UHGV virus genome: UHGV-0181014
From: a virus
Strand: one strand, 5' to 3'
DNA length: 14,759 nucleotides
Under the pieces are notes generated by a model. That model saw nothing but the letters and a program-made list of their open reading frames with translations. It ran no database searches and was not told the DNA's origin. This document shows, piece by piece, positions 55 through 14,601 of this stretch (within the stretch, counting starts at the first letter, position 1; every line of letters begins with the position of its first letter). The translations under genes and the position numbers were made by a program.

Positions 55-378
55 CCGCTTGTAAAACGCTGAGAACCGTACCATTGCTGGTGGTAGGTAC
101 TATTCATATGTATAAACAAACAGTGCTTTTTTAGCAAAATCTGCTCTATATACATCAATGACTTAGGCGATGGTTTCTCCCCATTCTATTTAAGTGGAAT
201 AACTCAAAGAATCTGTTAGTTTTTCAAGGCGTGATAAAAGTAACAGTATGAGTTTGCAGATAAAAAATTTAGGTGATTTTCGATCAATGTCATAGCTTGG
301 CACTTGGCCGAGTTTAAACTGCATGGGATAACCACACTTTAGCTGCTGTGTGATGGAGTCTCATAAAAGGTGATAATA

Positions 379-1479
379 ATGTGCAATGTTGACGATACAG
401 CTCCCGATACTCAACCACCTCTCGAACTAAGCCAGGATGTGCAGGCGCTGATCAACAACGGTTTGGACTTTCTGGATAAAGCCCGTGAAGAATTGGAAGC
501 ATCAAAGCCTAAGTTCTCCGTCGTCAGCTTCTGGACGGCAGTAGAGATTTTACTAAAAGTACCTCTTGCGCATGAACACTGGTCGTTGGTCTGCAGTCCA
601 AAGAAACCAATAAAAAAGCAGGACTACTTAGCTGGTGATTTTCAGTCTGTGACCTATGAAGAAACTCGTAGTAGGCTTAAGGATGTACTTGAAAAACCAC
701 TAGATAAGGAAACGGATAGTGCTTTTGATAAGGTCAGAAAGCACCGCAACCGCGTGGTTCATTTCTACCATCCAACTTTTACTGCAGATGAACAGCGCCA
801 GATACTCAAAGAACAAGCGGATGCTTGGTTTGCTCTGAACAGGTTATTAAGGGAAGAATGGAAAGTCATTTTTGGAGTCAAACATAATTGGACGCTTGCT
901 TTTGGTGAGACTCGATTAATTAGGGGAAATGAATTTTATGCCCAAGTGCGGCTTAATCAGGTTAAACCTGAATTAGAATCTCTTGCAGAAAAGGGCATGC
1001 TAATTGGTACTTGTAATGAGTGCCATCAGCGTTCGTTAGTAACGGACACTAAAATAATTGGTAATGAAAAACGTGAACTTGAAGTTACGCGATGTAAGGT
1101 TTGCACTAGTGTTTTACGGCAAATTAATCTAGTTTGTCCCGACTGTGGGGAAGTTCAATTGCTTCAGGAGGGGGATGATGTTTTTGAATGTAGACGCTGC
1201 AACTACGCTCGGAGTAGATATGATTTGCTAGATGAGGAAATATTCCATAGTGTGGATGAACAGCTTCTCTCTGCATTTCCTGCTGGATGTACCAACTGCA
1301 TGAACCCTGAAAGTGTATGCAAATTTGGCGAAGGCTATCTCTGTACTCGGTGTTTATCCTATTACACTGAAATTCAGCAATGTAATAGTTGCAACCACTT
1401 GAGCGATAGTGTTCCTGAATTTAGTCATATTCGAGGATGTGAATTTTGTGATGGCGACCAGCGTTATTTTGATGACTGA
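379..1479 (+). CDS. Hypothetical protein: N-terminal HEPN-like domain (R-x4-H motif) fused to four C-terminal CxxC...CxxC zinc-ribbon modules; candidate defence/toxin cargo gene
   Basis: Long ORF 370-1479; preferred ATG at 379 preceded by AAAGG (366-370). Motif RKHRNRVVH (DNA ~736-762) fits the Rx4-6H HEPN signature. C-terminal ~150 aa carry eight CxxC pairs (CNEC/CKVC, CPDC/CRRC, CTNC/CTRC, CNSC/CEFC). GC roughly 40 percent, lower than the prophage backbone. Function is inference only. Confidence 0.6.
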   Translation: MCNVDDTAPDTQPPLELSQDVQALINNGLDFLDKAREELEASKPKFSVVSFWTAVEILLKVPLAHEHWSLVCSPKKPIKKQDYLAGDFQSVTYEETRSRLKDVLEKPLDKETDSAFDKVRKHRNRVVHFYHPTFTADEQRQILKEQADAWFALNRLLREEWKVIFGVKHNWTLAFGETRLIRGNEFYAQVRLNQVKPELESLAEKGMLIGTCNECHQRSLVTDTKIIGNEKRELEVTRCKVCTSVLRQINLVCPDCGEVQLLQEGDDVFECRRCNYARSRYDLLDEEIFHSVDEQLLSAFPAGCTNCMNPESVCKFGEGYLCTRCLSYYTEIQQCNSCNHLSDSVPEFSHIRGCEFCDGDQRYFDD

Positions 1480-1639: not shown

Positions 1640-2818
1640 CTAACTAGCTTTAATTTCTCCATGAGGAACTACGACCCAATCGATATGATTTTGGGTATAG
1701 ATCTTTGTTGATTTCGCATCACTATGTGCCATTCGTCCTTGCGGATCGATACCCTGCTGATCGAAAAGATGCGCTGCCAGCGCTCTAATTTCATGAAAGG
1801 TTGGTCTTTCGTCCATCGATAGATGGTCGCATAAACCTAGCTTGTCACGCGTAGCTGAAAATGACCGACTCAAATAGTCCGGTGCAACTTGACTAGGGTG
1901 TGAAACCTCTTTGCTGCGTTTAATCTGCCGTTCAGGGATCCTGTGAACGACAAACGGACTGGCCACATTATCTCGGCTATCGTCTATTATCCGTTTCAAC
2001 TCTTCCCCAATCGGGATTGCAACGTGAGATGCCTCTTTTTTTTGCACTTTCTGCCTGTGGATGTAGAGAGTCCCATAAATACCGTTTTCTGGTTGCGCTA
2101 ACCATACGCACCCGCAGATACCGTCTTTTGGCTCTCTTATGGAGTAACGGATCCGTGAGACCTCCAATCGTGCGTGTGTTGTCTGCAATGCCAAATCCAT
2201 AGCGGTTCGTAACCATGGTTCGGCTGCGCGCCTGATGGCTTTAAAGTTATCAAGTGAAAGGCGCTGGCGCTTCTTCTCTTCTGTCCTACGCATTTTTTTA
2301 CGGGTTGCCGGGTTATCGAACATTAGTGATTCATCGACCGCATAGGAAAATAATTTTTTAAGAAAGCTGACTTTCCTGTTTTGTACGTTTGCTGATGCTT
2401 CGGCATGGTAGTGGTTTATATAGGCGTTCACATGCTCCAGCTCAATATCGCAAGCTGGTATGTTGATGAAGAATTCTTTTACCCTCAGAGCATCGTTGTT
2501 CCAATCGTCGAGTGTATTCTGTGAAGGGCGCTCATTCTCAATCGCCCGCTCCATAATATGATCTACGTGTTCAGCAAATGGTTTTGCTTCCCCAGTTACA
2601 CCGCCAGATTCACGGACAAGTATTTCTACTGAAGGTACATTTTCAGGTCTCATTCTTAGGTTGTATTCACGGGCTATAGCGATCGCTACAGCCCTGTCTT
2701 TACCAATATTCTTTTTTTTCCCAGTTATGAGCGTAAATTTATAAACGCCGCGATCTTTATCGAATATTAGATATTCGGGTAGATGGCGGTATTCTCTTTT
2801 TCTTGGCCTGGCTGCCAT
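1640..2818 (-). CDS. int: Lambda-family tyrosine integrase
   Basis: 392-aa ORF. N-terminus MAARPRKREYRHLPEYLIF...GKDRAVAIAIAREYN parallels lambda Int arm-binding N-terminus (MGRRRSHERRDLPPNLYIR...GRDRRIAITEA). C-terminus PTFHEIRALAAHLF...HSDAKSTKIYTQ parallels lambda Int PPTFHELRSLSARLY...HKSDTMASQY with the catalytic tyrosine. Lies next to the tRNA-derived att core and is preceded by xis. Confidence 0.9.
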   Translation of the reverse strand: MAARPRKREYRHLPEYLIFDKDRGVYKFTLITGKKKNIGKDRAVAIAIAREYNLRMRPENVPSVEILVRESGGVTGEAKPFAEHVDHIMERAIENERPSQNTLDDWNNDALRVKEFFINIPACDIELEHVNAYINHYHAEASANVQNRKVSFLKKLFSYAVDESLMFDNPATRKKMRRTEEKKRQRLSLDNFKAIRRAAEPWLRTAMDLALQTTHARLEVSRIRYSIREPKDGICGCVWLAQPENGIYGTLYIHRQKVQKKEASHVAIPIGEELKRIIDDSRDNVASPFVVHRIPERQIKRSKEVSHPSQVAPDYLSRSFSATRDKLGLCDHLSMDERPTFHEIRALAAHLFDQQGIDPQGRMAHSDAKSTKIYTQNHIDWVVVPHGEIKAS

Positions 2819-3119: not shown

Positions 3120-4358
3120 TTACTTTTTCATCACCTTTTCAGCAACACCAGCAATTGCCTCAAGTCCATCAAACATTGCTGGTATATTATTTTCATTGTT
3201 TTGTATTGGACTAAAAATAAGAGCATCAAAAGAGTCTAAAACTTTCTCAATAGCAATGTTATTTTTTCTTCTATATTCAACATACCCATCAATGAAAGCA
3301 CATAAGCTGAGCCTTAGATCAATCTGCATAAGTTGAGTTCTTAAAGCCTTCGCTTCTAAATATGAAAGTCTGAAAAAATAAATAATTGCCATCTCAATAG
3401 TAATAAATGGGAATAGAATGAAGATCGCTGAATAATCTTTAGGATATAAATCAGGGAAAGAAAAATGGATTATTACAGCAATCACAGGAGCAATGAATAC
3501 AGTCCCAAATAAATTTTTATAATTCATTTCAGTTGTAGAAAGCTCTTTCTCTTTTTTTTCTTTTATTATGTTAAAACCAGAGCTTAACCCAACAAAATTA
3601 TACTCTGATTTTAAATTTCTCACACGCTCCTCTAGTGCCTTAATTTCATCCCTTGATTCATCCACGTATTTTAAATTAGCATCTGCTTCTAGTTTTCCAT
3701 CTACAATAGCTTTTTTAATGTCATTATAATTATCAGATATTAATGATATGGATGCTTTAGTGTCTTTGTTAATTTTATCAATAGCCAAATCTAAGTTGCT
3801 AGAAATTTCATCGAGAAACTTCCGTTTGTTTTCGTCGAGGTCTGATATAAAGTTTCTAGCATCAGTTAGTTTGTTACTGTTTAGTAACCACTTCATAAGT
3901 GAAATAGGTAGTTTGTCTCGAATCCATGAAAATTGGTATTTACCTTCATTATCCTTGAAAGTGTTTTCTAATAATGTCAATTTGCTGTCTGTGATAAAGT
4001 TAGGCGTGATAATGGAACGAGTGCCTGTCCAATAATAGTACTCGTACAATACTCTTAACAAGGTTGACAAAAAATCAATCTTGTCTTTCTTGTAATCGTC
4101 AACTTGAAATTCCATGTGCAACAATATATTGTCTTGATTAAAACCTGTATTCTCATCTAAATGTTGTGGGTTGTTATTTATTATTGATATAAAAGTCGAC
4201 CATGCTGAGTCCAATGTAGTATAGAATAAAGATATGCTATTATCTTTCTTTTTGGCGGATTTCTTGGACATTTCTTCAAACCTAATAAGATCTCTACTAA
4301 TTATAGTATTTGTTTCCTTTATTGAATTAAGTATTTTATTATCGCTATATAGTCCCAT
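3120..4358 (-). CDS. Hypothetical AT-rich membrane-anchored protein (412 aa, two predicted C-terminal TM helices); candidate abortive-infection or superinfection-exclusion cargo gene
   Basis: Uninterrupted 412-codon ORF in a segment of roughly 30 percent GC, against ~50 percent or more in flanking phage genes. Hydrophobic stretches FGTVFIAPVIAVIIHFSF and AIFILFPFITIEMAIIYFF near the C-terminus; coiled-coil-like segment ESRDEIKALEERVRNLKSEY. AAAAAGG RBS before the ATG at 4358. No recognisable catalytic motif. Confidence 0.7.
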   Translation of the reverse strand: MGLYSDNKILNSIKETNTIISRDLIRFEEMSKKSAKKKDNSISLFYTTLDSAWSTFISIINNNPQHLDENTGFNQDNILLHMEFQVDDYKKDKIDFLSTLLRVLYEYYYWTGTRSIITPNFITDSKLTLLENTFKDNEGKYQFSWIRDKLPISLMKWLLNSNKLTDARNFISDLDENKRKFLDEISSNLDLAIDKINKDTKASISLISDNYNDIKKAIVDGKLEADANLKYVDESRDEIKALEERVRNLKSEYNFVGLSSGFNIIKEKKEKELSTTEMNYKNLFGTVFIAPVIAVIIHFSFPDLYPKDYSAIFILFPFITIEMAIIYFFRLSYLEAKALRTQLMQIDLRLSLCAFIDGYVEYRRKNNIAIEKVLDSFDALIFSPIQNNENNIPAMFDGLEAIAGVAEKVMKK

Positions 4359-4475: not shown

Positions 4476-5303
4476 TTATGGTTTAAATATTCCGATGAAA
4501 GTGTCCACTGATTCACCCTCGAACTTGCTGATCAGCAAATTGCGGAATTCGTTGGCGATCTCTTCTTCCTGGGCTTCAAGTTGGACGATGCGCAGAACAA
4601 AGCAGGGTTCATCGCTGGTCAGCAGGCTGTTACGCAAACTAAAGCGGCGTTCGCCCATACCTTCATACGGCACACATTTGAACTCGAACGCCACAGGCAT
4701 TACGTCTTTGCTGCTTGCTTCAACGCTTTGCATCAGGGATTTTTTACCAGCGAAATCACCAGTTTCATGGTCCTGCTGGGTTGCTTGCTGGATAGTGATA
4801 CGACGTACAGCCTGAGCTGCCTGGGAAATCTGCATCGTATTGCCATCAGCATCAAACGCCAGCAGGTAATCGCTCCAGTCTTCCAGCCATTCAGCGATTT
4901 GCTTTTGCTTCAGACGTTGACCGTCGATCTGCAGTAGCGCACGGAACGGGGCGGTTTTCTTTAGGGTGATTGAAGCAACGTTATCGGCGTGACCGGGATT
5001 ATCCAGGGTGCCGATGTTGAACACTGAACGAGCGGTCATGTTGTCAGCATCAATGAAGCAACGGGCTGGATCGCTGGCGCTGGCGTAACCTTTAGAATAA
5101 CGTGCGAAGTCGTCAATACTGGTTGTGGTCATTGCGCCACGGAAGCGGAAACGCTCCAGAGAAAAGCGCTCAAGGCTTTCAACGCCAGTACCTTCTGGCA
5201 ATAATGCGGTCGGGCAAGCCAGGTCCTGAATATCATTCAGGTGATAACCGGAAAGAACCAGGTCTTTGACCTGCTTGAAGGTACCGCTGTCTAACTGAGA
5301 CAT
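4476..5303 (-). CDS. Conserved prophage early-left protein, possibly YfdQ-like (DUF2303 family)
   Basis: 275-aa ORF with TAAGGAA RBS. Size and N-terminus (MSQLD...) match my recollection of E. coli CPS-53 YfdQ (274 aa); family assignment is from memory, not a search. Confidence 0.7.
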   Translation of the reverse strand: MSQLDSGTFKQVKDLVLSGYHLNDIQDLACPTALLPEGTGVESLERFSLERFRFRGAMTTTSIDDFARYSKGYASASDPARCFIDADNMTARSVFNIGTLDNPGHADNVASITLKKTAPFRALLQIDGQRLKQKQIAEWLEDWSDYLLAFDADGNTMQISQAAQAVRRITIQQATQQDHETGDFAGKKSLMQSVEASSKDVMPVAFEFKCVPYEGMGERRFSLRNSLLTSDEPCFVLRIVQLEAQEEEIANEFRNLLISKFEGESVDTFIGIFKP

Positions 5304-6321: not shown

Positions 6322-6948
6322 TTAAAGCTCGTACTGAACGCCTTTGACAACGCCGATGATCAGGCAATTACCGTTAATTGAAATGTTTGGATAGCGTGGA
6401 TTTAAGGGAACTAAGAACTTTTGAGGCCCGTCGATGACAAGTTTTTTTACAGTAGCCTCGTTTGTCCCATCAAGCCTGGCTACGACTATCTTTCCATGAA
6501 GTGGCTCTGCATCTGGATCTACTATGACTGTTGCCCCTTCAGGGATTGTCGGGAGGCCATTAGGGTTTGTCATCGAATCACCTTTAACCTCCAATGCAAA
6601 GGAGCTATCCCCTATGCGGAGTGATGTCTCTATCCACTTATCTACTTCGCTGAAAACTTCTGCTGCTTTACATTCTGTAAACTGTCCAGCCTGAACCCAG
6701 GATATCACCGGAATCCTTCGCATCTTGGTTATCAGATTGCCTTCAAATTCAGTGCCATAAAGTATGTAATCAATTGATGTGTTGAAATACTTTGCAAGTT
6801 TCGCAAGTGACTCGCCTCCTGGCACATTAACGTCTTTTTCCCAATACCCAACCGCCACATCACTAACACCGCAGAACTTACCCAGTTCTTTCTGCGAGGT
6901 TTTGGTTATGCGCCTGAGAGCTTTGATGCGCTGACCGACAGTTTCCAT
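6322..6948 (-). CDS. CI-like prophage repressor (HTH_XRE N-terminal domain plus S24 LexA-like autopeptidase domain)
   Basis: 208-aa ORF. N-terminal HTH (QKELGKFCGVSDVAVGYWEKDVNVP), a probable Ala-Gly cleavage site (VQAGQF), and the S24 Ser/Lys dyad context (GDSM ... VKKL). Divergent from a Cro-like gene with operator palindromes between them. Confidence 0.85.
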   Translation of the reverse strand: METVGQRIKALRRITKTSQKELGKFCGVSDVAVGYWEKDVNVPGGESLAKLAKYFNTSIDYILYGTEFEGNLITKMRRIPVISWVQAGQFTECKAAEVFSEVDKWIETSLRIGDSSFALEVKGDSMTNPNGLPTIPEGATVIVDPDAEPLHGKIVVARLDGTNEATVKKLVIDGPQKFLVPLNPRYPNISINGNCLIIGVVKGVQYEL

Positions 6949-6974: not shown

Positions 6975-7046
6975 CTAAGCAATCTTAGTTTTTATTGACC
7001 AAAGTTAGATTGGTTATTAATATCTAATCAAACTTAGCTAAGGAGG
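6975..7046. promoter_or_regulatory. oR-like operator cluster with rightward promoter (pR) for the Cro-like gene
   Basis: Inverted repeats built on CTAAG/CTTAG half-sites: CTAAGcaatCTTAG (6975-6988), CTAATcaaaCTTAG (7024-7037), CTTAGCTAAG (7033-7042). Candidate pR: -35 TTGACC (6995-7000), 17-nt spacer, -10 TAATAT (7018-7023). AGGAGG RBS at 7041-7046 before the ATG at 7051. Confidence 0.55.
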
Positions 7047-7050
7047 CGTT

Positions 7051-7278
7051 ATGACAACCGATGATATTGAAAACTACTTCGGCAGTACTGAGAAGGTTGC
7101 CGAATTTTTTGGAATCACAAGCGAGGCTGTTTACCAGTGGCGTAATAGAACTGGTCGCCTTATCCCAAAAGGGCGTGCAGCTGAAGCAGCATATCGAACC
7201 GGGGGGAAATTGGTTTTTCATCCCGACCTTTACGAAAAGCGTAGCGATGCTTCAGTAAAACTCAAACCACAGGAATAA
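7051..7278 (+). CDS. Cro-like small HTH regulator (Cro/YdaS-like)
   Basis: 75-aa ORF divergent from the repressor, strong AGGAGG RBS. Motif AEFFGITSEAVYQWRNRTGRLIP fits the Cro/YdaS-type HTH pattern. Confidence 0.75.
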   Translation: MTTDDIENYFGSTEKVAEFFGITSEAVYQWRNRTGRLIPKGRAAEAAYRTGGKLVFHPDLYEKRSDASVKLKPQE

Positions 7279-7288
7279 GGGGGGAGCT

Positions 7289-7840
7289 GTGGGTAACGAA
7301 CCTATTTGGAAAGTCGAACGTCAGCCAGCCTGGCTGGTGGCGGCGATAAAAAAAACGATCACCGATCTTCCTGGTGGTTATGCCGAGGCGGCGGAATGGT
7401 TGGGCGTGACAGAGAACGCATTGTTCAACCGCCTTCGTGTTGACGGCGACCAAATCTTCCCGCTGGGCTGGGCAATGGTTTTACAACGTGCTGGTGGTTC
7501 AACTCATATCGCTGATGCCGTTGCGCGCCATTCTCAGGGCGTATTTGTACCGCTGGCAGATGTTGATGATCTGGATAACGCCGATATCAACCAGCGCCTG
7601 ATGGAATCAATCGAATGGATAGGCCGTCATTCTAATTTTGTACGTAAAGCCACGGCTGATGGGGTGATTGACGCAGAGGAGCGCGCTCAGATTGAGGAAA
7701 ACAGCTATCAGGTGATCGCGAAGTTCCAGGAGCACGTAGCACTTCTTTATCGAGTTTTTTGTGTCGCTGAAAAGAGTGACGCCCGCGAGTGTGCAGCTCC
7801 GGGCGCCTTGGCGAACAACTCTTCGAGTATGGAGAAATAA
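7289..7840 (+). CDS. CII-like phage regulatory protein (183 aa)
   Basis: GTG-initiated ORF directly after the Cro-like gene, the canonical cII position. Sequence such as AAEWLGVTENALFNRLR and size are consistent with the phage CII/CP76-type regulator family as I recall it. Function by position plus weak motif recall. Confidence 0.55.
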   Translation: MGNEPIWKVERQPAWLVAAIKKTITDLPGGYAEAAEWLGVTENALFNRLRVDGDQIFPLGWAMVLQRAGGSTHIADAVARHSQGVFVPLADVDDLDNADINQRLMESIEWIGRHSNFVRKATADGVIDAEERAQIEENSYQVIAKFQEHVALLYRVFCVAEKSDARECAAPGALANNSSSMEK

Positions 7841-8012
7841 TCCGCATGAGCAGTTTAACGGCTTTTAACCGTCTACCGCAACTCAGGATGATCCCGGTTT
7901 CGGGTACTCCGTTGTTTCGGTATGAACGCAGATTATCAAACCGCTGGGTTCCGTGTAACCACAGTAGGGCGGTTTCAATTGTGGGGGTCTATAACCGGAG
8001 GGCAAAACGCCT

Positions 8013-8192
8013 GTGCGCGAACTTAACCGAAGGTTCAAAGACCACCGCGGAGTGTCTGTCCGTGTTATCCGCTGGGAGCCAGAAACACAGCGCGTTATCT
8101 ACCTGCGTGATGGCTACCCGCACGAATGCTTCAGCCCACTTGAGCATTTCAGGCAAAAGTTCAGGGAGATAACGGACGATCATGAGCACTAA
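8013..8192 (+). CDS. Putative small protein (59 aa, GTG start) overlapping the start of the replication gene
   Basis: Frame opens after TAA at 7992-7994. GTG at 8013 preceded by GGAGG (7996-8000, 12-nt spacing). The translation VRELNRRFKDHRGVSVRVIRWEPETQRVIYLRDGYPHECFSPLEHFRQKFREITDDHEH looks protein-like, whereas the overlapping 127-aa frame (7789-8172) is Ser/Ala/Thr/Arg-rich in this interval. It ends 10 nt into the next gene. Confidence 0.3.
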   Translation: MRELNRRFKDHRGVSVRVIRWEPETQRVIYLRDGYPHECFSPLEHFRQKFREITDDHEH

Positions 8193-9039
8193 ATTAACCG
8201 GCTACGTATGGGATGGTTGCGCGGCGTCGGGCATGAAGTTGTCTAGTGTCGCGATCATGGCGCGCCTTGCTGATTTCAGCAGCGATGAGGGGGTGTGCTG
8301 GCCGTCTATTGAAACTATCGCTCGCCAGCTTGGCGCAGGGACGAGCACTATCAGAACGGCAATCGCTAAGCTTGAAAAAGATGGCTGGCTCACGCGTACA
8401 CAGCGCCGTAATGGTAACCGTAATGCGTCGAACGTGTACCGCCTGAATGTGGCGAAACTTCAGGCTGCCGCATTTTCTCAACTGTCAGATTCTGACGCGT
8501 CAAAACCTGACGCATCAAATTTTGACACCTCAAAAACTGACCCGTCGAAATCTGGCAAAAACGGCGGTTTTGACCCGTCAGAATCTGGCGGGGATCCGTC
8601 AGTAAAATCAAAACAAGATCCACAAGTAACTTCAAAACCCTCTTGTCCGGTTGCGGCGCAACCAGACCCTGAAGTCGTGATTACTGACCAGGCAATTTTG
8701 GTTCTGACCCATTTGAACCAGATAAGCGGATCCCGGTATCAGAAATCAAAAACATCCCTGGAGAACATCCGTGCCCGACTGCGTGAGGGATACAGCGTTG
8801 CAGACCTGCAACTTGTTATCGACCTGAAGCATGAACACTGGCACGAGAACGACGAGCAGTACCAGTACATGCGCCCGGAAACGCTGTTCGGCCCGAAGAA
8901 ATTCGAGAGCTATCTGCAAAGCGCTACCCGCTGGGAGCAGAAGGGACGGCCTAAACGCGCTGACTGGGGAGCGAAAAAGCGCGATGTGATGGCTTTTGGT
9001 CCGGTTGAAACAACGATTCCAGAGGGGTTCAGAGGATGA
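8182..9039 (+). CDS. Replication initiator (O-like): N-terminal winged-helix/HTH domain, acidic Ser/Asp linker, conserved phage C-terminal domain
   Basis: 285-aa ORF. N-terminal LSSVAIMARLADFSSDEGVCWPSIETIARQLGAGTSTIRTAIAKLEKDGWL is a typical HTH replication-protein fold signature. The C-terminal ILVLTHLNQISGSRYQ...LVIDLKHEHWHENDEQYQYMRPETLFGPKKFESYL resembles the conserved phage C-terminal domain of replication proteins. Contains tandem iterons; the true start may be 8182 or the internal ATG at 8233. Confidence 0.75.
   Translation: MSTKLTGYVWDGCAASGMKLSSVAIMARLADFSSDEGVCWPSIETIARQLGAGTSTIRTAIAKLEKDGWLTRTQRRNGNRNASNVYRLNVAKLQAAAFSQLSDSDASKPDASNFDTSKTDPSKSGKNGGFDPSESGGDPSVKSKQDPQVTSKPSCPVAAQPDPEVVITDQAILVLTHLNQISGSRYQKSKTSLENIRARLREGYSVADLQLVIDLKHEHWHENDEQYQYMRPETLFGPKKFESYLQSATRWEQKGRPKRADWGAKKRDVMAFGPVETTIPEGFRG
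8478..8640. repeat. Origin-like iteron array inside the replication gene, followed by an A-rich tract
   Basis: Tandem 15-bp units: TGACGCGTCAAAACC (8493-8507), TGACGCATCAAATTT (8508-8522), TGACACCTCAAAAAC (8523-8537), TGACCCGTCGAAATC (8538-8552), TGACCCGTCAGAATC (8571-8585), plus degenerate copies at 8478-8492 and 8586-8600. TGACGCGTCA is itself palindromic. The array is followed by an A-rich stretch (8601-8640), analogous to ori-lambda within gene O. Confidence 0.6.
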
Positions 9040-9917
9040 CGTTAAACAAATATTGCCAGGCGCTGGCGGCACTGCGCAGCAAGCCAGCCCACGAACTGAA
9101 AGAGGTTGGCGATCAGTGGCGGACACCGGATCTGCTTTTTTGGGGTATCAACGCGCTATTTGGTCCATTAGTTCTGGACTTGTTTGCTGACGACGACAAC
9201 GCGAAGTGCCCGGCATGGTACACCGCCGAAGATAACGCGCTGACACAGAACTGGTCTGAACGTCTGGATGAACTGGGCGGCGCGGCTTTTGCCAATCCTC
9301 CATATAGCCGCTCCCAGTATCACGACAAGCAGGCGATCACGGGTATGACACACATCATGAATCACACCATGGACATGCGTGAAAGAGGTGGTCGCTATAT
9401 TTACCTGGTGAAGTCTGCCACAAGTGAAACATGGTGGCCGGAAGATGCCGATCACATCATGTTTATTCGTGGTCGTATTGGGTTCGATCTGCCTGTGTGG
9501 TTTGTACCTGCTGACGAAAAACAGAAACCCACCAGCGCGTTTTTTGCCGGTGCCATAGCTGTATTCGATAAGTCGTGGCGGGGTGAGCAGTTCAGCTATA
9601 TCAACCGCACAGAACTGGAGGAAAAAGGGCGGGCATTTATGGCTTTGGCTCAATTCGCCGTTGGTAAAGAGCAAACAATTGCAATGCAGGCAGCCAGGGA
9701 ACCAGCAGCAACACCGGAAACTGAGTCACGAATCTGGCCTCTCGAGGTTGGTCTGGTGTTTAACCAGGTGGAAGGCGTTGATGTATTGAGCGAGGCCCAG
9801 CAGAACAAACTGAAAGCCAACATCAATCAACTCTGGCTGGAACGAACGGCCACCAGCGAAATTATCACAATTGCGCGTGGTCTTGTTGGCAGCATGCAGG
9901 GGGCAACCCATGCGTGA
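9036..9917 (+). CDS. Phage-type DNA N6-adenine methyltransferase (Dam-like, orphan)
   Basis: 293-aa ORF with the catalytic NPPY motif (FANPPYS) and the N-terminal QWRTPDLLF...LVLDLFADDDNAKCPAWYT signature characteristic of phage N6-adenine methyltransferases. ATGA start/stop overlap with the replication gene. Confidence 0.85.
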   Translation: MTLNKYCQALAALRSKPAHELKEVGDQWRTPDLLFWGINALFGPLVLDLFADDDNAKCPAWYTAEDNALTQNWSERLDELGGAAFANPPYSRSQYHDKQAITGMTHIMNHTMDMRERGGRYIYLVKSATSETWWPEDADHIMFIRGRIGFDLPVWFVPADEKQKPTSAFFAGAIAVFDKSWRGEQFSYINRTELEEKGRAFMALAQFAVGKEQTIAMQAAREPAATPETESRIWPLEVGLVFNQVEGVDVLSEAQQNKLKANINQLWLERTATSEIITIARGLVGSMQGATHA

Positions 9918-11907
9918 GATTATCGTTGATAACTTTGCTGGTGGCGGTGGTGCATCAACGGGTATTGAACTGGCGATCGGACGCAGCGTGGATATTGCGA
10001 TCAACCACGACGAAAACGCCATTGCGATGCACAAGACGAACCACCCTGACACACTGCATTACTGTGAATCCGTATTTGACGTGGATCCGGTAGCCGCCAC
10101 CGGCGGCAATCCTGTTGGCCTGGCATGGTTTAGCCCGGACTGCCGACACTTCTCAAAGGCCAAAGGCGCAAAGCCTGTCAAAAAAGAGATACGCGGTCTG
10201 GCCTGGATTGTTCTGCGTTGGGCACTGGCTAAGCGACCGCGCGTGATGATGCTGGAGAACGTGGAAGAGTTCAAAACGTGGGGACCGTTAATTGACATCC
10301 CGCCTAAACCTGATTTGCCGGAAGCCCTTATGGCGGATTTTATTGGCCCGGTTTACCCTGGAAATAGTCGCCCAGACCCTGCCCGCACTGGAGAAACATT
10401 CAATGCATTTGTCGGCATGCTGTCCACTGGTATTCCTGCTGACCACCCGGCACTGTCAGAGGTTTGTGAGTTTCTGTCTATTGAAAGAGGTAGCGAGCAG
10501 GCGCAACAGCTGGTGGATGGGCTTGGATATGATGTTGATTATCGCGAACTGCGCGCGTGTGATTACGGAGCACCGACGATCCGCAAACGTTTCTTCATGG
10601 TTATGCGCTGCGATGGTTTCCCTATTCAGTGGCCTGCTGTTACCCATGGGGATCCTAAGTCTCTGGAGGTGCAGAGCGGCAGGCTGATGCCATGGCGTAC
10701 CGCTGCGGAATGTATCGACTGGAATGTTCCGGCCCTGTCCATCTTCGACCGCAAAAAACCATTGGCTGAAAATACGCTCAAACGCATCGCTCGTGGTATC
10801 CAGCGGTTTGTGATCGAGAGCGCGTCGCCGTTCATCGTTAAGTGCAACCACACGACGACCAAAGGGAAATACGACTGTTTCCGTGGTCAGGCGCTGGGCG
10901 AGCCTTTGCAGACCATTACGAAAACCCATGGCTACGCGATTGCCGTCCCACACCTGACAAAGTTCCGTACTGGCGCAACCGGGCAGCCCGTTACCGAACC
11001 CGTCCCGACGGTAACCGCTGGCACATCAAAACGTCCAGGTGGGAACGGGCATGCACTCGGGATTGTTGAGGCTGCACTGACGCCATTCCTGGCGGGTAAC
11101 GGTGGTAGTGAATACCAGGCGAAACCGCGCCCGCTGGATAAACCTGCTCATACCATTCTGAAGCAATCCCGCGCCTGTCTTGTTGCGCCAGTGATAGCCC
11201 GCCAGTTTGGGGCCAGCGTCGGCCACCGGGCAGACGAACCGAGCGCAACCATCACCGCTGGTGGTGGCGGTAAATCTCAACTGGTAACGCCTACGCTGAT
11301 CCAGATGGGTTATGGCGAACGACCTGGACAAGAACCGCGTGTGCTGCGGCTGGATAACCCGCTGGGGACCGTTACTGCAGGTGGAAATAAATTCGCGACG
11401 GTGACCGCGTTCCTGGCTAAACACTACGGCGGTAACTATACGGGACCGGGTGTCAGTATGGATGAACCCGCGCACTCAGTGACCACTGTCGACCATCATG
11501 CAGTAGTTGCCTCTCATCTGGTGAAACTGCGTGGAACATGCCGCGACGGGCAACGCCTTGATGTGCCAATGCCAACAATCACTGCTGGTGGCCAACACGT
11601 GGGTGAGGTACGCACATTTCTCGAGACGTATTGCGGGGAAAGTGACGATGAATGGCTGGTAACGATCGATGGGGTTAAATACCAGATCGTTGATATCGGA
11701 ATGCGCATGTTGCAGCCGCATGAACTCTACAAAGCGCAGGGCTTCCCGGATGGTTACGTTATTGATCAGGACTACCGTGGAAATCGCTATGCAAAAGATA
11801 AGCAGGTAGCCCGCTGCGGTAATGCGGTACCACCACCATTCGCCAGGGCGCTGGTGGAGGCAAATCTTCCGGAACTGTGTGCAGTGCAACAGCAGGAGGT
11901 GGCATGA
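9910..11907 (+). CDS. DNA cytosine-5 methyltransferase (large, 665 aa) with an expanded, internally repeated variable region
   Basis: Motif I FAGGGG (DNFAGGGGAS), catalytic Cys context SPDCRHFS, motif VI LENV, motif VIII IRKRFFMV, motif X GNAVPPP near the C-terminus. ATG at 9910 preceded by CAGGGGG and overlapping the Dam-like stop by 8 nt. The ~300-aa region between motifs VIII and X contains about seven repeats of a P-x-T-[IV]-T-A-G-G-like module. Confidence 0.85.
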   Translation: MREIIVDNFAGGGGASTGIELAIGRSVDIAINHDENAIAMHKTNHPDTLHYCESVFDVDPVAATGGNPVGLAWFSPDCRHFSKAKGAKPVKKEIRGLAWIVLRWALAKRPRVMMLENVEEFKTWGPLIDIPPKPDLPEALMADFIGPVYPGNSRPDPARTGETFNAFVGMLSTGIPADHPALSEVCEFLSIERGSEQAQQLVDGLGYDVDYRELRACDYGAPTIRKRFFMVMRCDGFPIQWPAVTHGDPKSLEVQSGRLMPWRTAAECIDWNVPALSIFDRKKPLAENTLKRIARGIQRFVIESASPFIVKCNHTTTKGKYDCFRGQALGEPLQTITKTHGYAIAVPHLTKFRTGATGQPVTEPVPTVTAGTSKRPGGNGHALGIVEAALTPFLAGNGGSEYQAKPRPLDKPAHTILKQSRACLVAPVIARQFGASVGHRADEPSATITAGGGGKSQLVTPTLIQMGYGERPGQEPRVLRLDNPLGTVTAGGNKFATVTAFLAKHYGGNYTGPGVSMDEPAHSVTTVDHHAVVASHLVKLRGTCRDGQRLDVPMPTITAGGQHVGEVRTFLETYCGESDDEWLVTIDGVKYQIVDIGMRMLQPHELYKAQGFPDGYVIDQDYRGNRYAKDKQVARCGNAVPPPFARALVEANLPELCAVQQQEVA

Positions 11908-12290
11908 AACTTGTGCTCCCGTTCCCTCCAAGCGTGAACACGTACTGGCGCGCCCCTAATAAGGGGCCGCTGGCCGGTCGTCACCTCATTAGCGCTGATG
12001 GCCGTAAATACCAGAGCGCTGCCTGCGTGGCGATCATTGAGCAATTACGACGTCTCCCGAAGCCTTCGACTGAATTAGCAGCGGTAGAAATCACTCTGTA
12101 CCCGCCGGATGCGCGCCGCCGGGATATCGATAATTACAACAAAGCCCTGTTTGACGCGCTGACGCATGCGGGTGTCTGGGAAGACGACAGCCAGATTAAG
12201 CGCATGCTGGTGGAATGGGGACCCGTTGTGCCGAAAGGTCGGGTAGAGATAACGATCAGCAGATATGAACCGGCGGGTGCAGCCGCCTGA
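11904..12290 (+). CDS. rusA: RusA-like Holliday junction resolvase
   Basis: ATG at 11904 with AGGAGGTGG RBS, overlapping the methyltransferase stop (ATGA). LPFPPSVNTYWR and RRRDIDNYNKALFDALTHAGVWEDDSQI closely parallel E. coli RusA ([40 protein letters not shown]). Confidence 0.85.
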   Translation: MKLVLPFPPSVNTYWRAPNKGPLAGRHLISADGRKYQSAACVAIIEQLRRLPKPSTELAAVEITLYPPDARRRDIDNYNKALFDALTHAGVWEDDSQIKRMLVEWGPVVPKGRVEITISRYEPAGAAA

Positions 12291-12303: not shown

Positions 12304-12990
12304 ATGAGCCAGTTAATCGTGAATGGTGTTGTAACAATGTCCAGCCGTGATATTGCGGATCTGGTTCAGAGTAAACACAGTGACGTGAAACGTTCGGCTG
12401 AGCGTCTTGTTGCTGCGGGAATTTTAACCGCGCCGTTGGCGCAGTTCGATTTTGAGCATAACGGTAATGTGTACCAGGAGTATCGTTTTAACAAACGCGA
12501 ATCTCTGGTGATTGTTGCCAGACTTTCACCTGAATTTACCGCCGCGGTTGTCGATCGCTGGCAGGAACTGGAAGAAGGGCAGAGTGTCAGTGTTCCCCGC
12601 TCATTGCCGGAAGCGCTTCGCCTGGCTGCTGATTTAGCCGAGCAGAAAGAGCAACTGACCATCCAACTGGCAGCCGCGGCGCCAAAAGTGGAGTTTGTTG
12701 ATCGTTATTGCTCTGCAAAAGGCTCCATGTCATTCCGGCAGGTAGCCAAATTGCTCAACGCAAAAGAAACTGAGTTTCGTCTGTTCCTTATCGAACGCAA
12801 TATCCTGTATCGCCTCGGCGGCACACTTACCCCCATGGCGCAGCACATTTCCGCGGGAAGATTTGAAGTTAAGACCGGAACATCGAGCACATCCAATCAC
12901 GCATTCAGCCAGACGCGTTTCACTGCCAAGGGAGTACGCTGGATTGGTGGTTTGTGGGCTGAACATATTGCGGGGGGGCAGGCGGCGTGA
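12304..12990 (+). CDS. Antirepressor-type protein (Rha-family N-terminal domain plus KilA-C/ANT C-terminal domain)
   Basis: ATG at 12304 preceded by GGAGAAAAG. N-terminus LIVNGVVTMSSRDIADLVQSKHSDVKRSAERL fits the Rha regulatory-protein pattern. C-terminus FRQVAKLLNAKETEFRLFLIERNILYR...GVRWIGGLWAEHIAG fits the KilA-C antirepressor domain as recalled. Confidence 0.65.
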   Translation: MSQLIVNGVVTMSSRDIADLVQSKHSDVKRSAERLVAAGILTAPLAQFDFEHNGNVYQEYRFNKRESLVIVARLSPEFTAAVVDRWQELEEGQSVSVPRSLPEALRLAADLAEQKEQLTIQLAAAAPKVEFVDRYCSAKGSMSFRQVAKLLNAKETEFRLFLIERNILYRLGGTLTPMAQHISAGRFEVKTGTSSTSNHAFSQTRFTAKGVRWIGGLWAEHIAGGQAA

Positions 12991-13982
12991 GGGCTTTGTT
13001 AACTCCTGAAGTCGCCCATCGCATGGGGATTGTGTTATTTCGTCCCGGCGCGGAACTGATGCACCTCTTCATGCGCGGTCGCGTTCTTCTCGAACCTGAA
13101 CCAGAAGAAATGGCGTCATTCAGTACAGGGGCTGTTCCCGCAGCCATTCAGCCGCTGGCTGATGATCCTGTAATGCGGCAGGTATTCGAGAATGAACGGG
13201 TTATTCAGCGTGCCGGCGGGATTTCTTCCCTTGAGCAATGGCTGAGTTCTCGGTTTGAATGCCAGTGGCCACATTCAACGTGGCACGACAAGAACTTCAC
13301 AACAATGCGGCACCCACCAGGAAGCATTCGCCTGTGCTGGCATTGCGATCACACTTTGTCGGGGCAGCATACCGAACAGCTTGCAGGTATAGCGGCCGGA
13401 AACCTGGTATCCTGGATTCTGGAAGTCATTCGGCGTGATTCTGGTTTTCCCGAGTCGCATATCCTGACGCTTCCGGAACTGTGCTGGTGGATGGTCAGAA
13501 ACGACCTGGCTGATGTTATTCCGGAAAGCGTTGCGCACAAAGGGCTGCGCCTTCCGGATGAGAAGATCCGCTCTGTCATGAGGGAAAGCGACATAGTGCC
13601 TTCCTCGTCAGCAACCAGACTCGTGCAGGAGAAGGCGAAGAAGATCCTCACGCTCTCTGTTGATCCTGAGTCGCCAGAGTCTTTTATGCTCAGGCCAAAA
13701 CGTCGCCGCTGGATAAATGAGACGTACACCCGCTGGGTTAAAACACAACCCTGTGAGTGTTGCCGACGGCCAGCAGATGATCCGCACCATATCGTAGGGC
13801 ACGGTATGGGGGGGACAGCAACAAAAGCCCATGACCTCTTCGTGATCCCTCTGTGCAGAGAGTGCCACGACGAGTTACACGCCGATGTACCAGCATTCGA
13901 GCAGAGGCATGGTACGCAGCTTGAGTTGCTACTGCGTTTTATGGATCGGGCGCTGGCGATCGGCGTAATTGCGAAAGCTTAA
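12987..13982 (+). CDS. DUF968/YdfU-like nin-region protein with C-terminal HNH-like Cys/His motif
   Basis: 331-aa ORF with GTG start overlapping the preceding stop (GTGA). C-terminal CECCRRPADDPHHIVGHGMGG...CRECHDELH is a zinc-binding HNH-like arrangement. Position and size match prophage YdfU-type proteins as I recall them. Confidence 0.65.
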   Translation: MRALLTPEVAHRMGIVLFRPGAELMHLFMRGRVLLEPEPEEMASFSTGAVPAAIQPLADDPVMRQVFENERVIQRAGGISSLEQWLSSRFECQWPHSTWHDKNFTTMRHPPGSIRLCWHCDHTLSGQHTEQLAGIAAGNLVSWILEVIRRDSGFPESHILTLPELCWWMVRNDLADVIPESVAHKGLRLPDEKIRSVMRESDIVPSSSATRLVQEKAKKILTLSVDPESPESFMLRPKRRRWINETYTRWVKTQPCECCRRPADDPHHIVGHGMGGTATKAHDLFVIPLCRECHDELHADVPAFEQRHGTQLELLLRFMDRALAIGVIAKA

Positions 13983-14001: not shown

Positions 14002-14601
14002 ATGACACCACATCAACGCCGCAATCATTTTGAAGCACTGGGTAAAGCAGCATCTGCTCCGCGTAAAAGCTGGCTGGGTAAAAGCATTCTTCTGACGGGG
14101 ATCCAATCCGGATGGATTAAATCCCTGCTCACCACATGGGGCGAGGGTGTGGGAGGAAAAACTGCACCCCGTATGCCGCGGGGCCACGCCTGCTGGAATG
14201 TACTAAGAGGTCGTAACTGGTCAGATAAGGCACTGGACCGCTTCACTGCTGCGTTGAATCAGGCACGAGAAGAGGGATTCCGTGGACAGCAGGCAATGAA
14301 CAGGGCACATAGTATTCTGTGGCCGCAGTCACCTGCCAGTGTGATTGATGAAGCCCTGCATAATGATGATGTCGATTTTGTTGAGCAATGCGTGCTACAG
14401 GCACTGGATATAAACGATCCTGTTTATGTTGTTGGTCTTCAGTATTACACCACTCGAAAAAAAATCTCAGACATCACCCGGGAACTGCAGGTAATCGCGC
14501 CATGGCTGACTGATGGGGAGGCAAGAAAGCGCGTGCGCTGGTGCCTGGAAATATTCAGAGCGAAGACCTTTTTGGCAGCACGAAAACAGTTATCTGAATA
14601 A
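14002..14601 (+). CDS. Putative late-gene antiterminator (Q-like), assigned mainly by position
   Basis: ORF 13969-14601 begins with TTG. The ATG at 14002 has GGAG 9 nt upstream. It sits after the nin-like genes and immediately before a candidate late promoter. I do not recognise a lambda-Q zinc finger, so the assignment is positional and tentative. Confidence 0.4.
   Translation: MTPHQRRNHFEALGKAASAPRKSWLGKSILLTGIQSGWIKSLLTTWGEGVGGKTAPRMPRGHACWNVLRGRNWSDKALDRFTAALNQAREEGFRGQQAMNRAHSILWPQSPASVIDEALHNDDVDFVEQCVLQALDINDPVYVVGLQYYTTRKKISDITRELQVIAPWLTDGEARKRVRWCLEIFRAKTFLAARKQLSE

Follow-up and report, generated by a model that had tools for sequence, protein, structure and literature searches.

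Two orphan methyltransferase genes in the early-right operon of a lambdoid prophage and a seven-cassette array in the predicted C5-cytosine enzyme

The DNA stretch analysed here, 14,759 nucleotides of the virus genome UHGV-0181014 (the window; positions are counted from its first letter), carries a replication initiator gene followed by genes for an N6-adenine methyltransferase (N6A enzyme), a C5-cytosine methyltransferase (C5 enzyme) and the Holliday-junction resolvase RusA. Both methyltransferases are very probably phage-borne orphan enzymes, which would be made together with the replication genes and would pre-methylate the progeny DNA; the breadth of the C5 enzyme may come from an array of cassettes within it. 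The arrangement is a documented anti-restriction layout of phages and is not new; the cassette array is its one unusual point. The genes and features concerned are the following.

8182..9039, plus strand: replication initiator (O-like or DnaD-like), with an HTH_36 N-terminal winged helix and Phg_2220_C (Pfam; PHROGs 'primosomal protein / replication initiation O-like')
8484..8590: iteron-like array within the initiator gene, 5 copies with a period of about 15 nt (repeat search: direct family D1, inverted repeats I1-I3)
9036..9917, plus strand: N6-adenine methyltransferase of the phage 'Dam' family (PF05869, E 5.5e-45; TIGR01712, E 9.4e-62; phrog_111 and phrog_16025)
9910..11907, plus strand: C5-cytosine methyltransferase, 665 residues (PF00145, E 3.7e-20)
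10894..11637, plus strand: seven-cassette array of the C5 enzyme, residues 329-576 (motif statistics, alignment indels, unit hidden Markov model (HMM) and unit typing)
11904..12290, plus strand: RusA Holliday-junction resolvase (PF05866, E 4.3e-16, 60 bits)

The C5 enzyme scores 73 bits against PF00145 (cut-off 22), in three stretches, and its catalytic motifs can be followed along the chain. Motif I (FAGGGG, residues 9-14) is invariant in 132 diverse homologues, motif VI reads ENV (residues 116-118), motif VIII RKR (225-227), motif IX QGFPDGY (610-616) and motif X GNAVPP (637-642). In motif IV (SPDCRHFS) the catalytic cysteine, C78, is present, with Asp in place of Pro before the Cys. Of the motifs of the enzyme, only I, VIII and IX-X could be aligned when solved structures were searched by sequence. 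Among published enzymes and their relatives, ARM81mr_p29 is 44.7% identical over residues 3-665 of the C5 enzyme, the ARM81ld enzyme about 40%, and a Paracoccus siganidrum protein, whose gene opens with the exact cloning primer of JCM7686_0772, 38% (E 7e-125). Since it was P. siganidrum that the primer search matched, this last sequence is a close relative of JCM7686_0772 and not the P. aminophilus protein that had been tested. The identical C5 protein is present in 30 contig-index blocks, from which 24 carrying contigs were read. Its family comprises 8319 clusters at 50% identity (E ≤ 0.001) and spans Proteobacteria, Firmicutes and Verrucomicrobia. Judged by its sequence, the enzyme is a member of the family of large, broad-specificity phage 5-methylcytosine (m5C) methyltransferases.

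Between motif VIII and the region of motif IX (residue 599 onward) the C5 enzyme contains seven tandem units of 32-48 residues each, which start at about residues 329, 361, 409, 441, 481, 517 and 550. After the cassette core, which can be written D/E-x-P-x-x-T-[IV]-T, there usually come GG and a hydrophobic strand; the core motif occurs 7 times in the protein against 0.1 expected in shuffled sequences, and pairs of units have a mean score of 34 as compared to 19 ± 4 in shuffles. In alignment, proteins 82-98% identical to the window C5 enzyme differ by the clean presence or absence of whole cassettes, and its close relatives have quantised lengths between 575 and 717 residues. A unit HMM built from close homologues was overfitted and missed both divergent units and the cores of the Bacillus phage enzymes considered below, and was replaced by a profile from diverse members; average-linkage typing was used instead of single-linkage clustering, which had collapsed the units into two groups. 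With these, 393 sampled family members were found to contain 1-11 units per protein (mode 7), falling into 181 types and 246 architectures, and the order of the cassettes is mostly kept (57 of 68 frequent type pairs occur in one order). The Paracoccus/ARM81 group has the same cassette array with 5 to 9 units, and the unit profile gave no matches in unrelated proteins of the window. The accessible papers on the Paracoccus and ARM81 enzymes, which do not include the 2016 J Gen Virol paper on ARM81, make no mention of the cassette architecture. The most conserved last cassette of the family (PLHTVTTKDRFGLVTV), present in Citrobacter phage phiNP and in ARM81mr, is missing from the window enzyme and the relatives closest to it, which have ETYCGESDDEWLVTIDG there instead (about 11620-11680, residues 570-590). 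Natural variants include a form of 626 residues in which cassette 5 is absent, and the phiNP enzyme has the terminal cassette but neither cassette 2 nor cassette 5.

We compared this array with the multispecific enzymes of the Bacillus phages SPbeta/phi3T, SPR, rho11s and H2. The variable regions of these enzymes are cassette arrays with cores such as 'LSPTLTTMGGG', LSPTITTNKGEG, 'VSHTLSAS' and EPAFTVNTIDRHGVA, of which two are present in SPbeta, three in SPR and four each in rho11s and H2. Such core counts match or exceed the known numbers of targets, some domains being dormant. In the Bacillus enzymes and in the window C5 enzyme one catalytic core carries tandem cassettes between motifs VIII and IX, and in both groups the presence or absence of cassettes separates otherwise similar enzymes. 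Both are phage-borne orphans for which an anti-restriction role is considered, in the case of the window enzyme a predicted one. The resemblance extends to single cores: the window unit EPAHSVTTVDHHAVVA resembles the Bacillus core EPAFTVNTIDRHGVAI, and the window unit PSATITAGGGGK resembles SPTLTTMGGGHR (window units 4 and 6). The family unit profile has EPAFTVNTIDRHGVA as its top match in all four Bacillus enzymes, with 5.4-7.0 bits where 400 shuffles reach 2.3 at most, and the 'PTLTT' and 'PTITT' cores rank next. The two groups differ in motif IV, with FPC on the Bacillus side and SPDC in the window enzyme, and in the number of cores, which is 2-4 in the Bacillus enzymes, 7 in the window enzyme and up to 11 in its family; with SPbeta MtbP the window enzyme shares short local blastp matches only, the best with E 0.007 in the core region and E 0.013 in the cassette region. 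Multispecificity of the Bacillus enzymes is experimentally established (cited in PMC8936443 and PMC4190342), whereas the window enzyme is known from sequence alone.

The cassettes are candidate target-recognition domains, a reading that is supported, though not demonstrated, by their position, the similarity of their motifs, their modular evolution and the many-site phenotype of relatives. It is quite possible, and we propose it tentatively, that the C5 enzyme is hyper-multispecific, each of the seven cassettes being an alternative recognition domain that docks on the single core. One 2-kb gene would then guard up to seven classes of restriction site, and the repertoire of the family would evolve by gain, loss and exchange of cassettes. 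The cassettes may in this way explain the broad specificity of the family.

The phenotype of the relatives is documented in studies by a single laboratory (Decewicz, Radlinska, Dziewit and colleagues). Large phage m5C enzymes of about 700 residues have been described as having relaxed specificity, among them the enzymes of the Aeromonas ARM81 phages, which lie in the replication module; m5C and N6-methyladenine (m6A) methyltransferase genes occur within the replication modules of Sinorhizobium prophages (PMC5537653; Decewicz, Radlinska, Dziewit). The Paracoccus enzymes JCM7686_0772 and JCM7686_2655 partially protected DNA from 16 of 28 restriction enzymes, with AGCT, GGCC, CCNGG, CCWGG, CCGG, CCSGG, GCGC, ACGT, CAGCTG and other sites protected and CGCG, GATC, CTAG, CATG, CCATGG and others unprotected (PMC3925955, with its supplementary table). 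Orphan methyltransferases of mobile elements have been reviewed as anti-restriction devices (PMC12707154), and this role has been shown for lactococcal phages (PMC4190342). The window C5 enzyme shares with the large phage m5C group (JCM7686_0772, JCM7686_2655, ARM81mr_p29, ARM81ld_p31 and Phi2LM21_p23) full-length homology, the SPDC motif, the cassettes, orphan status and a position in or beside the replication module, and ARM81mr_p29 overlaps the replication gene O by ATGA. It stands apart from this group in its Enterobacteriaceae host, in its seven cassette types, a set of its own, and in gene order, since the C5 gene follows the initiator and N6A genes in the window and precedes O in ARM81mr. 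In phage P1, Dmt is a single protein in which adenine and C5 methyltransferase domains are fused. Dmt thus pairs both chemistries in one phage expression unit, for which the window has two separate genes with an 8-nt overlap. P1-type phages were not among the tblastn matches of the C5 enzyme (by organism), so the C5 parts are not closely related.

The N6A enzyme scores 153.5 bits against PF05869 (threshold 28.1) and 207.4 bits against the TIGR01712 equivalog (threshold 97.05). Its catalytic domain (residues 19-199), over which the protein of Escherichia phage Flotzy is 78% identical, contains NPPY at residues 87-90, a motif kept in the E. coli and Flotzy homologues. Behind a variable linker follows a conserved C-terminal module of 64 residues (residues 230-293; window 9723-9914; phrog_16025). 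Matches in 458 phage records were obtained by tblastn, with about 73% identity in Stx2 phages and 27% in phage T1, and a sequence search against solved structures gave no meaningful match. The enzyme resembles the phage 'Dam' family (T1 Dam, VT-2 Stx2-phage Dam, HP1 Dam and lactococcal M.Phi93DAM) in its strong model match, NPPY motif, orphan status and early or replication placement, and differs from it in the added linker and 64-residue module, which are found in only 12 of the 458 phage matches at a coverage of at least 80%. M.EcoGII, a class beta enzyme, and Hia5, which is DPPY-type and belongs to another subfamily, were considered as relatives and rejected, the window enzyme being a PF05869 member with NPPY.

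For the specificity of the N6A enzyme we rely on analogy. The NPPY-only lactococcal phage enzyme M.Phi93DAM has been validated as GATC-specific (PMC4190342); it would belong to PF05869 by virtue of the NPPY-only motif and a resemblance to an enzyme from a staphylococcal prophage. Small NPPY-type phage m6A enzymes are reported to copy the host regulatory methyltransferase, recognising GANTC in Alphaproteobacteria and GATC in the case of most Dam-like enzymes of Gammaproteobacteria phages (PMC5537653). By this analogy we infer GATC for the window enzyme. The labels carried by related genes can be misleading: the Flotzy homologue (locus L009, 38618-39952), whose linker is about 150 residues longer, is annotated as 'phosphoadenosine phosphosulfate reductase' (PAPS reductase), and the same label lies over the N6A matches in ST-101 and other chi-like Salmonella phages and in PHROG 33262, and over a neighbouring gene in ST64B.

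The genes on either side of this unit show the setting in which the two enzymes would be expressed.

6322..6948, minus strand: CI/LexA-type repressor (Pfam Peptidase_S24, E 3.8e-27; HTH_3, E 8.9e-10)
6995..7023, plus strand: PR-like promoter candidate (TTGACC, 17 nt, TAATAT) between repressor and cro, a consensus match only
7051..7278, plus strand: Cro-like regulator, the first gene of the operon (Pfam P22_Cro, E 1.2e-11)
7289..7840, plus strand: CII-like regulator (Pfam Phage_CP76, E 1.1e-9)
7789-8172, plus strand: small open reading frame (ORF), phrog_1170 (function not known), whose listed start overlaps the cII-like gene by 52 nt
12304..12990, plus strand: Rha/KilAC antirepressor (Pfam; ATG start at 12304, not 12265)
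12987..13982, plus strand: DUF968 protein with a C-terminal HNH-type motif (PF06147, E 8.7e-78; phrog_96 'HNH endonuclease', E 4.2e-156)
14002..14601, plus strand: Q-like antiterminator at the end of the early operon (phrog_753, E 4.8e-60; gene call)

A preliminary description of the window, made from its sequence, had placed overlaps at the three junctions of the unit, and reading the junctions directly found them exactly there. The TGA of the initiator gene (9037-9039) lies over the ATG of the N6A gene (9036) in ATGA (9036-9039); the TGA of the N6A gene (9915-9917) and the ATG of the C5 gene at 9910 form ATGCGTGA, an 8-nt overlap (9910-9917); and the TGA of the C5 gene (11905-11907) and the ATG of rusA at 11904 again form ATGA (11904-11907). 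The start codons fit homologues that open with MTLNKYC (N6A) and MREIIVDNF (C5) and are the same as those called independently on a metagenomic contig that encodes the identical C5 protein. The identities given there for the four genes are likewise borne out by Pfam and NCBIfam matches. Overlaps of this kind are ordinary, no more than chance or custom would give: all junctions from cro (7051) to the DUF968 gene (end 13982) are overlaps or gaps of at most 13 nt, and among co-directional gene pairs 18 of 51 overlap in complete phiNP and 26 of 57 in complete Flotzy (35-46%), with 4-nt overlaps as the commonest class (10 and 11 pairs) and 8-nt overlaps in 2 and 3 pairs. Sequences resembling a Shine-Dalgarno (SD) site precede the N6A, C5 and rusA genes (GAGGGG, AGGGGG and AGGAGG); with an SD-like sequence of its own at each of the three genes, translational coupling is plausible but not required.

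In a consensus scan no promoter-like site was found on the plus strand inside 8182-12290, and terminator-like matches in the same interval are weak only, with stems of 3 G-C pairs, all of them in coding sequence. The candidate at 6995-7023, between the repressor and cro, is the sole plus-strand promoter-like site upstream of the unit. The reading that fits best is thus a unit belonging to a lambdoid early-right operon, with the order cro, cII-like gene, small ORF, initiator, N6A, C5, RusA, antirepressor, DUF968 and Q-like gene. The earlier view that the four genes form one tightly coupled rightward unit holds insofar as they lie in a single operon. The coupling is not specific to the methyltransferases, because the same compactness runs from cro to the Q-like gene, and there is no warrant for stressing a coupling with the replication gene. 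That a place beside replication genes might bear on the timing of methylation, as the preliminary description held, is a speculation already in print (PMC5537653).

Some details of the surrounding genes may be added. The phrog_1170 match starts at residue 20, and the true start of the small ORF is therefore probably 3' of the cII stop; on the contig that has the identical C5 protein, this ORF was not called by the gene callers. The antirepressor start at 12304 is backed by the gene call on that contig and by an SD-like GGAG upstream. The iterons are of the type TGAC(N)CGTCAAA with inverted symmetry and are followed by two 22-nt repeats, each starting with GATC (8593 and 8617; the whole region is 8484-8638). 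By analogy to the lambda origin, which lies inside gene O, the iteron array inside the initiator gene is a probable origin, and the adjoining GATC sites could link Dam-type methylation to origin function. Over the whole window GGCC is rarer than expected (36 against 57 ± 7, first-order Markov), but host-wide bias was not controlled, so this is no evidence for specificity; with the same limit, GATC (71 against 54 expected) and CCWGG (37 against 25) are somewhat commoner. The remaining features lie to the left.

370-1479, plus strand: ORF of 369 residues, DUF3644 / PADLOC candidate defence family HEC-08 (E 9e-167), just outside the integrase
1640-2818, minus strand: integrase
3120-4358, minus strand: protein of 412 residues, phrog_9373 (function not known), in the leftward early region
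4476-5303, minus strand: DUF2303 protein, in the leftward early region

The 369-residue DUF3644 ORF could have a defence function, whether it belongs to the edge of the prophage or to the host DNA alongside. The DUF2303 gene and adjacent DNA are common to the window and phiNP, with about 83% DNA identity.

The unit of initiator, N6A and C5 genes, with the same 4-nt and 8-nt junctions, is also present in phiNP, which has a tail sheath, and in Flotzy, and the unit occurs in Salmonella and Enterobacter prophages as well; it is thus found on different phage backbones. In a Brevibacillus prophage a relative of the C5 gene lies again among replication genes, with no DUF968 gene nearby. The closest E. 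coli prophage (strain C3728) is 84% identical in DNA up to the N6A stop and 96% identical from 12 nt inside rusA onward. In the slot between them (locus L002, 6749-6874; window 9918-11915) an ORF of 40 residues (MRETVFYLH...) replaces the 2-kb C5 gene; the ATGCGTGA joint is retained, and the short ORF ends in TAATG at the rusA start. Since this prophage has the same initiator, N6A and rusA genes with the 40-residue ORF in place of C5, the slot is fixed and the C5 gene in it is cargo that can be exchanged, not integral to the replication machinery. Relatives stack further orphan methyltransferases: phiNP has four, and several carry an N6_N4_Mtase gene between Q and holin (locus L015, 10338-11390), a gene that is absent from this position in the window's own prophage, as read on the identical-C5 contig.

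As far as is visible, both enzymes look orphan. Pfam and PADLOC scans of the window ORFs gave no match to restriction endonuclease or nuclease-defence models, in agreement with the preliminary description, with the caveat that DUF968 is an HNH-type family. The adjacent prophage sequence, as read on the identical-C5 contig for about 7 kb to the right of the window, encodes holin, lysozyme, Rz, terminase, portal and protease and no nuclease or other endonuclease partner. No endonuclease is annotated in the complete genomes of phiNP, with its four methyltransferase genes, and Flotzy, and none was found in the Salmonella, Enterobacter and Brevibacillus neighbourhoods. The enzymes share their folds with the methyltransferases found in Type II restriction-modification systems, the closest PADLOC models being named 'Type II methyltransferase'; unlike such systems, the window genes have no cognate endonuclease and lie in a repressor-controlled phage early operon. 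Because characterised relatives guard DNA from many restriction enzymes (PMC3925955, PMC6536676), anti-restriction, which had been offered earlier as one possible role, is the best-supported role of the C5 enzyme. The interpretation in the preliminary description is in this sense partly supported: it is largely right, and it is not new.

A plausible course of events can be outlined. In a lysogen, the CI-type repressor would silence the operon, and this silence would also spare the host chromosome a methylation that could provoke McrBC-type nucleases, whose conflict with methylated DNA has been described (PMC2993543). Upon induction or infection, the methyltransferases would be transcribed together with the replication genes, and the initiator would act at the internal iterons (8484-8590). 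Both methyltransferases would modify the replicating phage DNA ahead of packaging, and the DNA would enter the next host protected. The m5C marks would block many Type II enzymes, as is shown for relatives only, and the m6A enzyme probably completes GATC methylation. As with the multispecific Bacillus phage enzymes, the cassettes would each bring a different target to the shared catalytic core.

Several points weigh against this interpretation. Motif IV of the C5 enzyme reads S-P-D-C and not the usual P-C, a point mitigated by ARM81mr_p29, which is reported to be active and has the same motif (SPDCKHFS). The Sinorhizobium enzyme Phi2LM21_p23 was inactive in E. coli (PMC5537653), and activity is therefore not guaranteed for each family member. 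For the N6A enzyme, GATC is an extrapolation from what is stated of its family, and related small NPPY enzymes of Alphaproteobacteria recognise GANTC. A single relaxed mode of recognition, and not several discrete ones, could lie behind the published 'partial protection'. Single cassettes gave no match in Pfam. An AlphaFold model made with 23 close sequences had a mean predicted local distance difference test (pLDDT) score of 47.8; with 132 diverse sequences the core was confident and residues 306-582 stayed below 50, so that the two runs lend no structural support to the cassettes folding as recognition domains. The unit profile did not detect the recognition core of the single-site E. coli enzyme Dcm, a control that shows only limited sensitivity.

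The low pLDDT of the array even with the diverse sequences, the divergence of the units beyond the reach of a Pfam model and the missed Dcm core speak for another reading, in which the array would be a flexible repeat region, serving for instance in DNA wrapping or as a spacer and giving one relaxed short-motif specificity, or would have some other role, and would not be a set of alternative recognition domains. We regard this as possible but somewhat doubtful. The array sits exactly at the position of the recognition domain, from motif VIII to motif IX, and its cores resemble the Bacillus multispecific cores, which the profile picks specifically. The units are discrete conserved types that are gained and lost whole, and the site pattern of PMC3925955 misfits one simple short motif, with GCGC and ACGT protected and CGCG not.

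A second alternative concerns the purpose of the methylation. The methyltransferases might chiefly serve phage replication, packaging or regulation, or manipulate host MutHLS, SeqA and Dam-regulated promoters, with restriction evasion secondary. Their recurrent placement by replication genes across phyla would fit such a role, and it has been speculated in print that placement in the replication module may reflect a role at the replication stage (PMC5537653). Phage Dam-type enzymes copy the specificity of a host regulatory methyltransferase, the two GATC-containing repeats at 8593 and 8617 lie directly beside the iterons, and a requirement of GATC methylation for P1 packaging is cited in PMC4190342. 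However, the C5 gene is dispensable, as the closest E. coli prophage has the initiator and N6A genes without it; a broad-specificity m5C enzyme is hard to square with a site-specific regulatory role; the four methyltransferases of phiNP look like breadth of protection; and a GATC enzyme adds little regulatory information in a Dam+ host. We consider a chiefly regulatory purpose unlikely, and it can coexist with the anti-restriction role that we favour.

It is highly improbable that the two enzymes are the modification half of a restriction-modification system whose nuclease is the DUF968 protein or lies outside the window. The DUF968 protein matches PHROG 96 'HNH endonuclease', has a C-terminal CxxC...HH...CxxCH motif and shares the operon, and every DUF968-bearing locus examined also has the N6A gene. 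Yet it matches no PADLOC defence or restriction model, and it lies beside the Q gene in phiNP, in Flotzy, in the Salmonella and Enterobacter prophages and also, flanked by the same genes, in the E. coli prophage without a C5 gene. The Firmicute relative has no DUF968 gene nearby, and beyond DUF968 no other nuclease candidate is present in 22 kb of the same prophage or in the two complete related genomes. DUF968 is a conserved gene of the lambdoid nin region and is unlikely to be a restriction partner. In phiNP the syntenic gene, whose 3' end matches the DUF968 gene of the window, is labelled 'antitermination protein Q'.

That the C5 gene is a passenger in decay or without activity, as the Asp in its Pro-Cys dipeptide and the inactive Phi2LM21_p23 might suggest, is scarcely credible, given that SPDC (S75, P76, D77 and C78) is invariant in 122 close homologues and 132 diverse members, which argues for purifying selection and not decay, that the frame is intact over 665 codons with the identical protein recurring in so many contigs, and that ARM81mr_p29, reported active with relaxed specificity, has this motif.

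The locus illustrates, in an ordinary way, a phage strategy already documented, and it matters mainly as a correct annotation, in view of the mislabels PAPS reductase and antitermination protein Q. What deserves experimental follow-up is the C5 cassette array alone. If the cassettes are indeed alternative recognition domains, they would provide a mechanism for the unexplained broad or 'relaxed' specificity of the family, the type of a cassette would predict the methylated motif, and the family would be a natural toolkit of swappable m5C recognition modules. The multispecific principle of the Bacillus phages, with its 2-4 domains, would then extend to a large and widespread family in Proteobacteria, Firmicutes and other phyla. 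Should cassette types and methylated motifs correspond one-to-one, the restriction systems that a temperate phage evades would be readable from its sequence.

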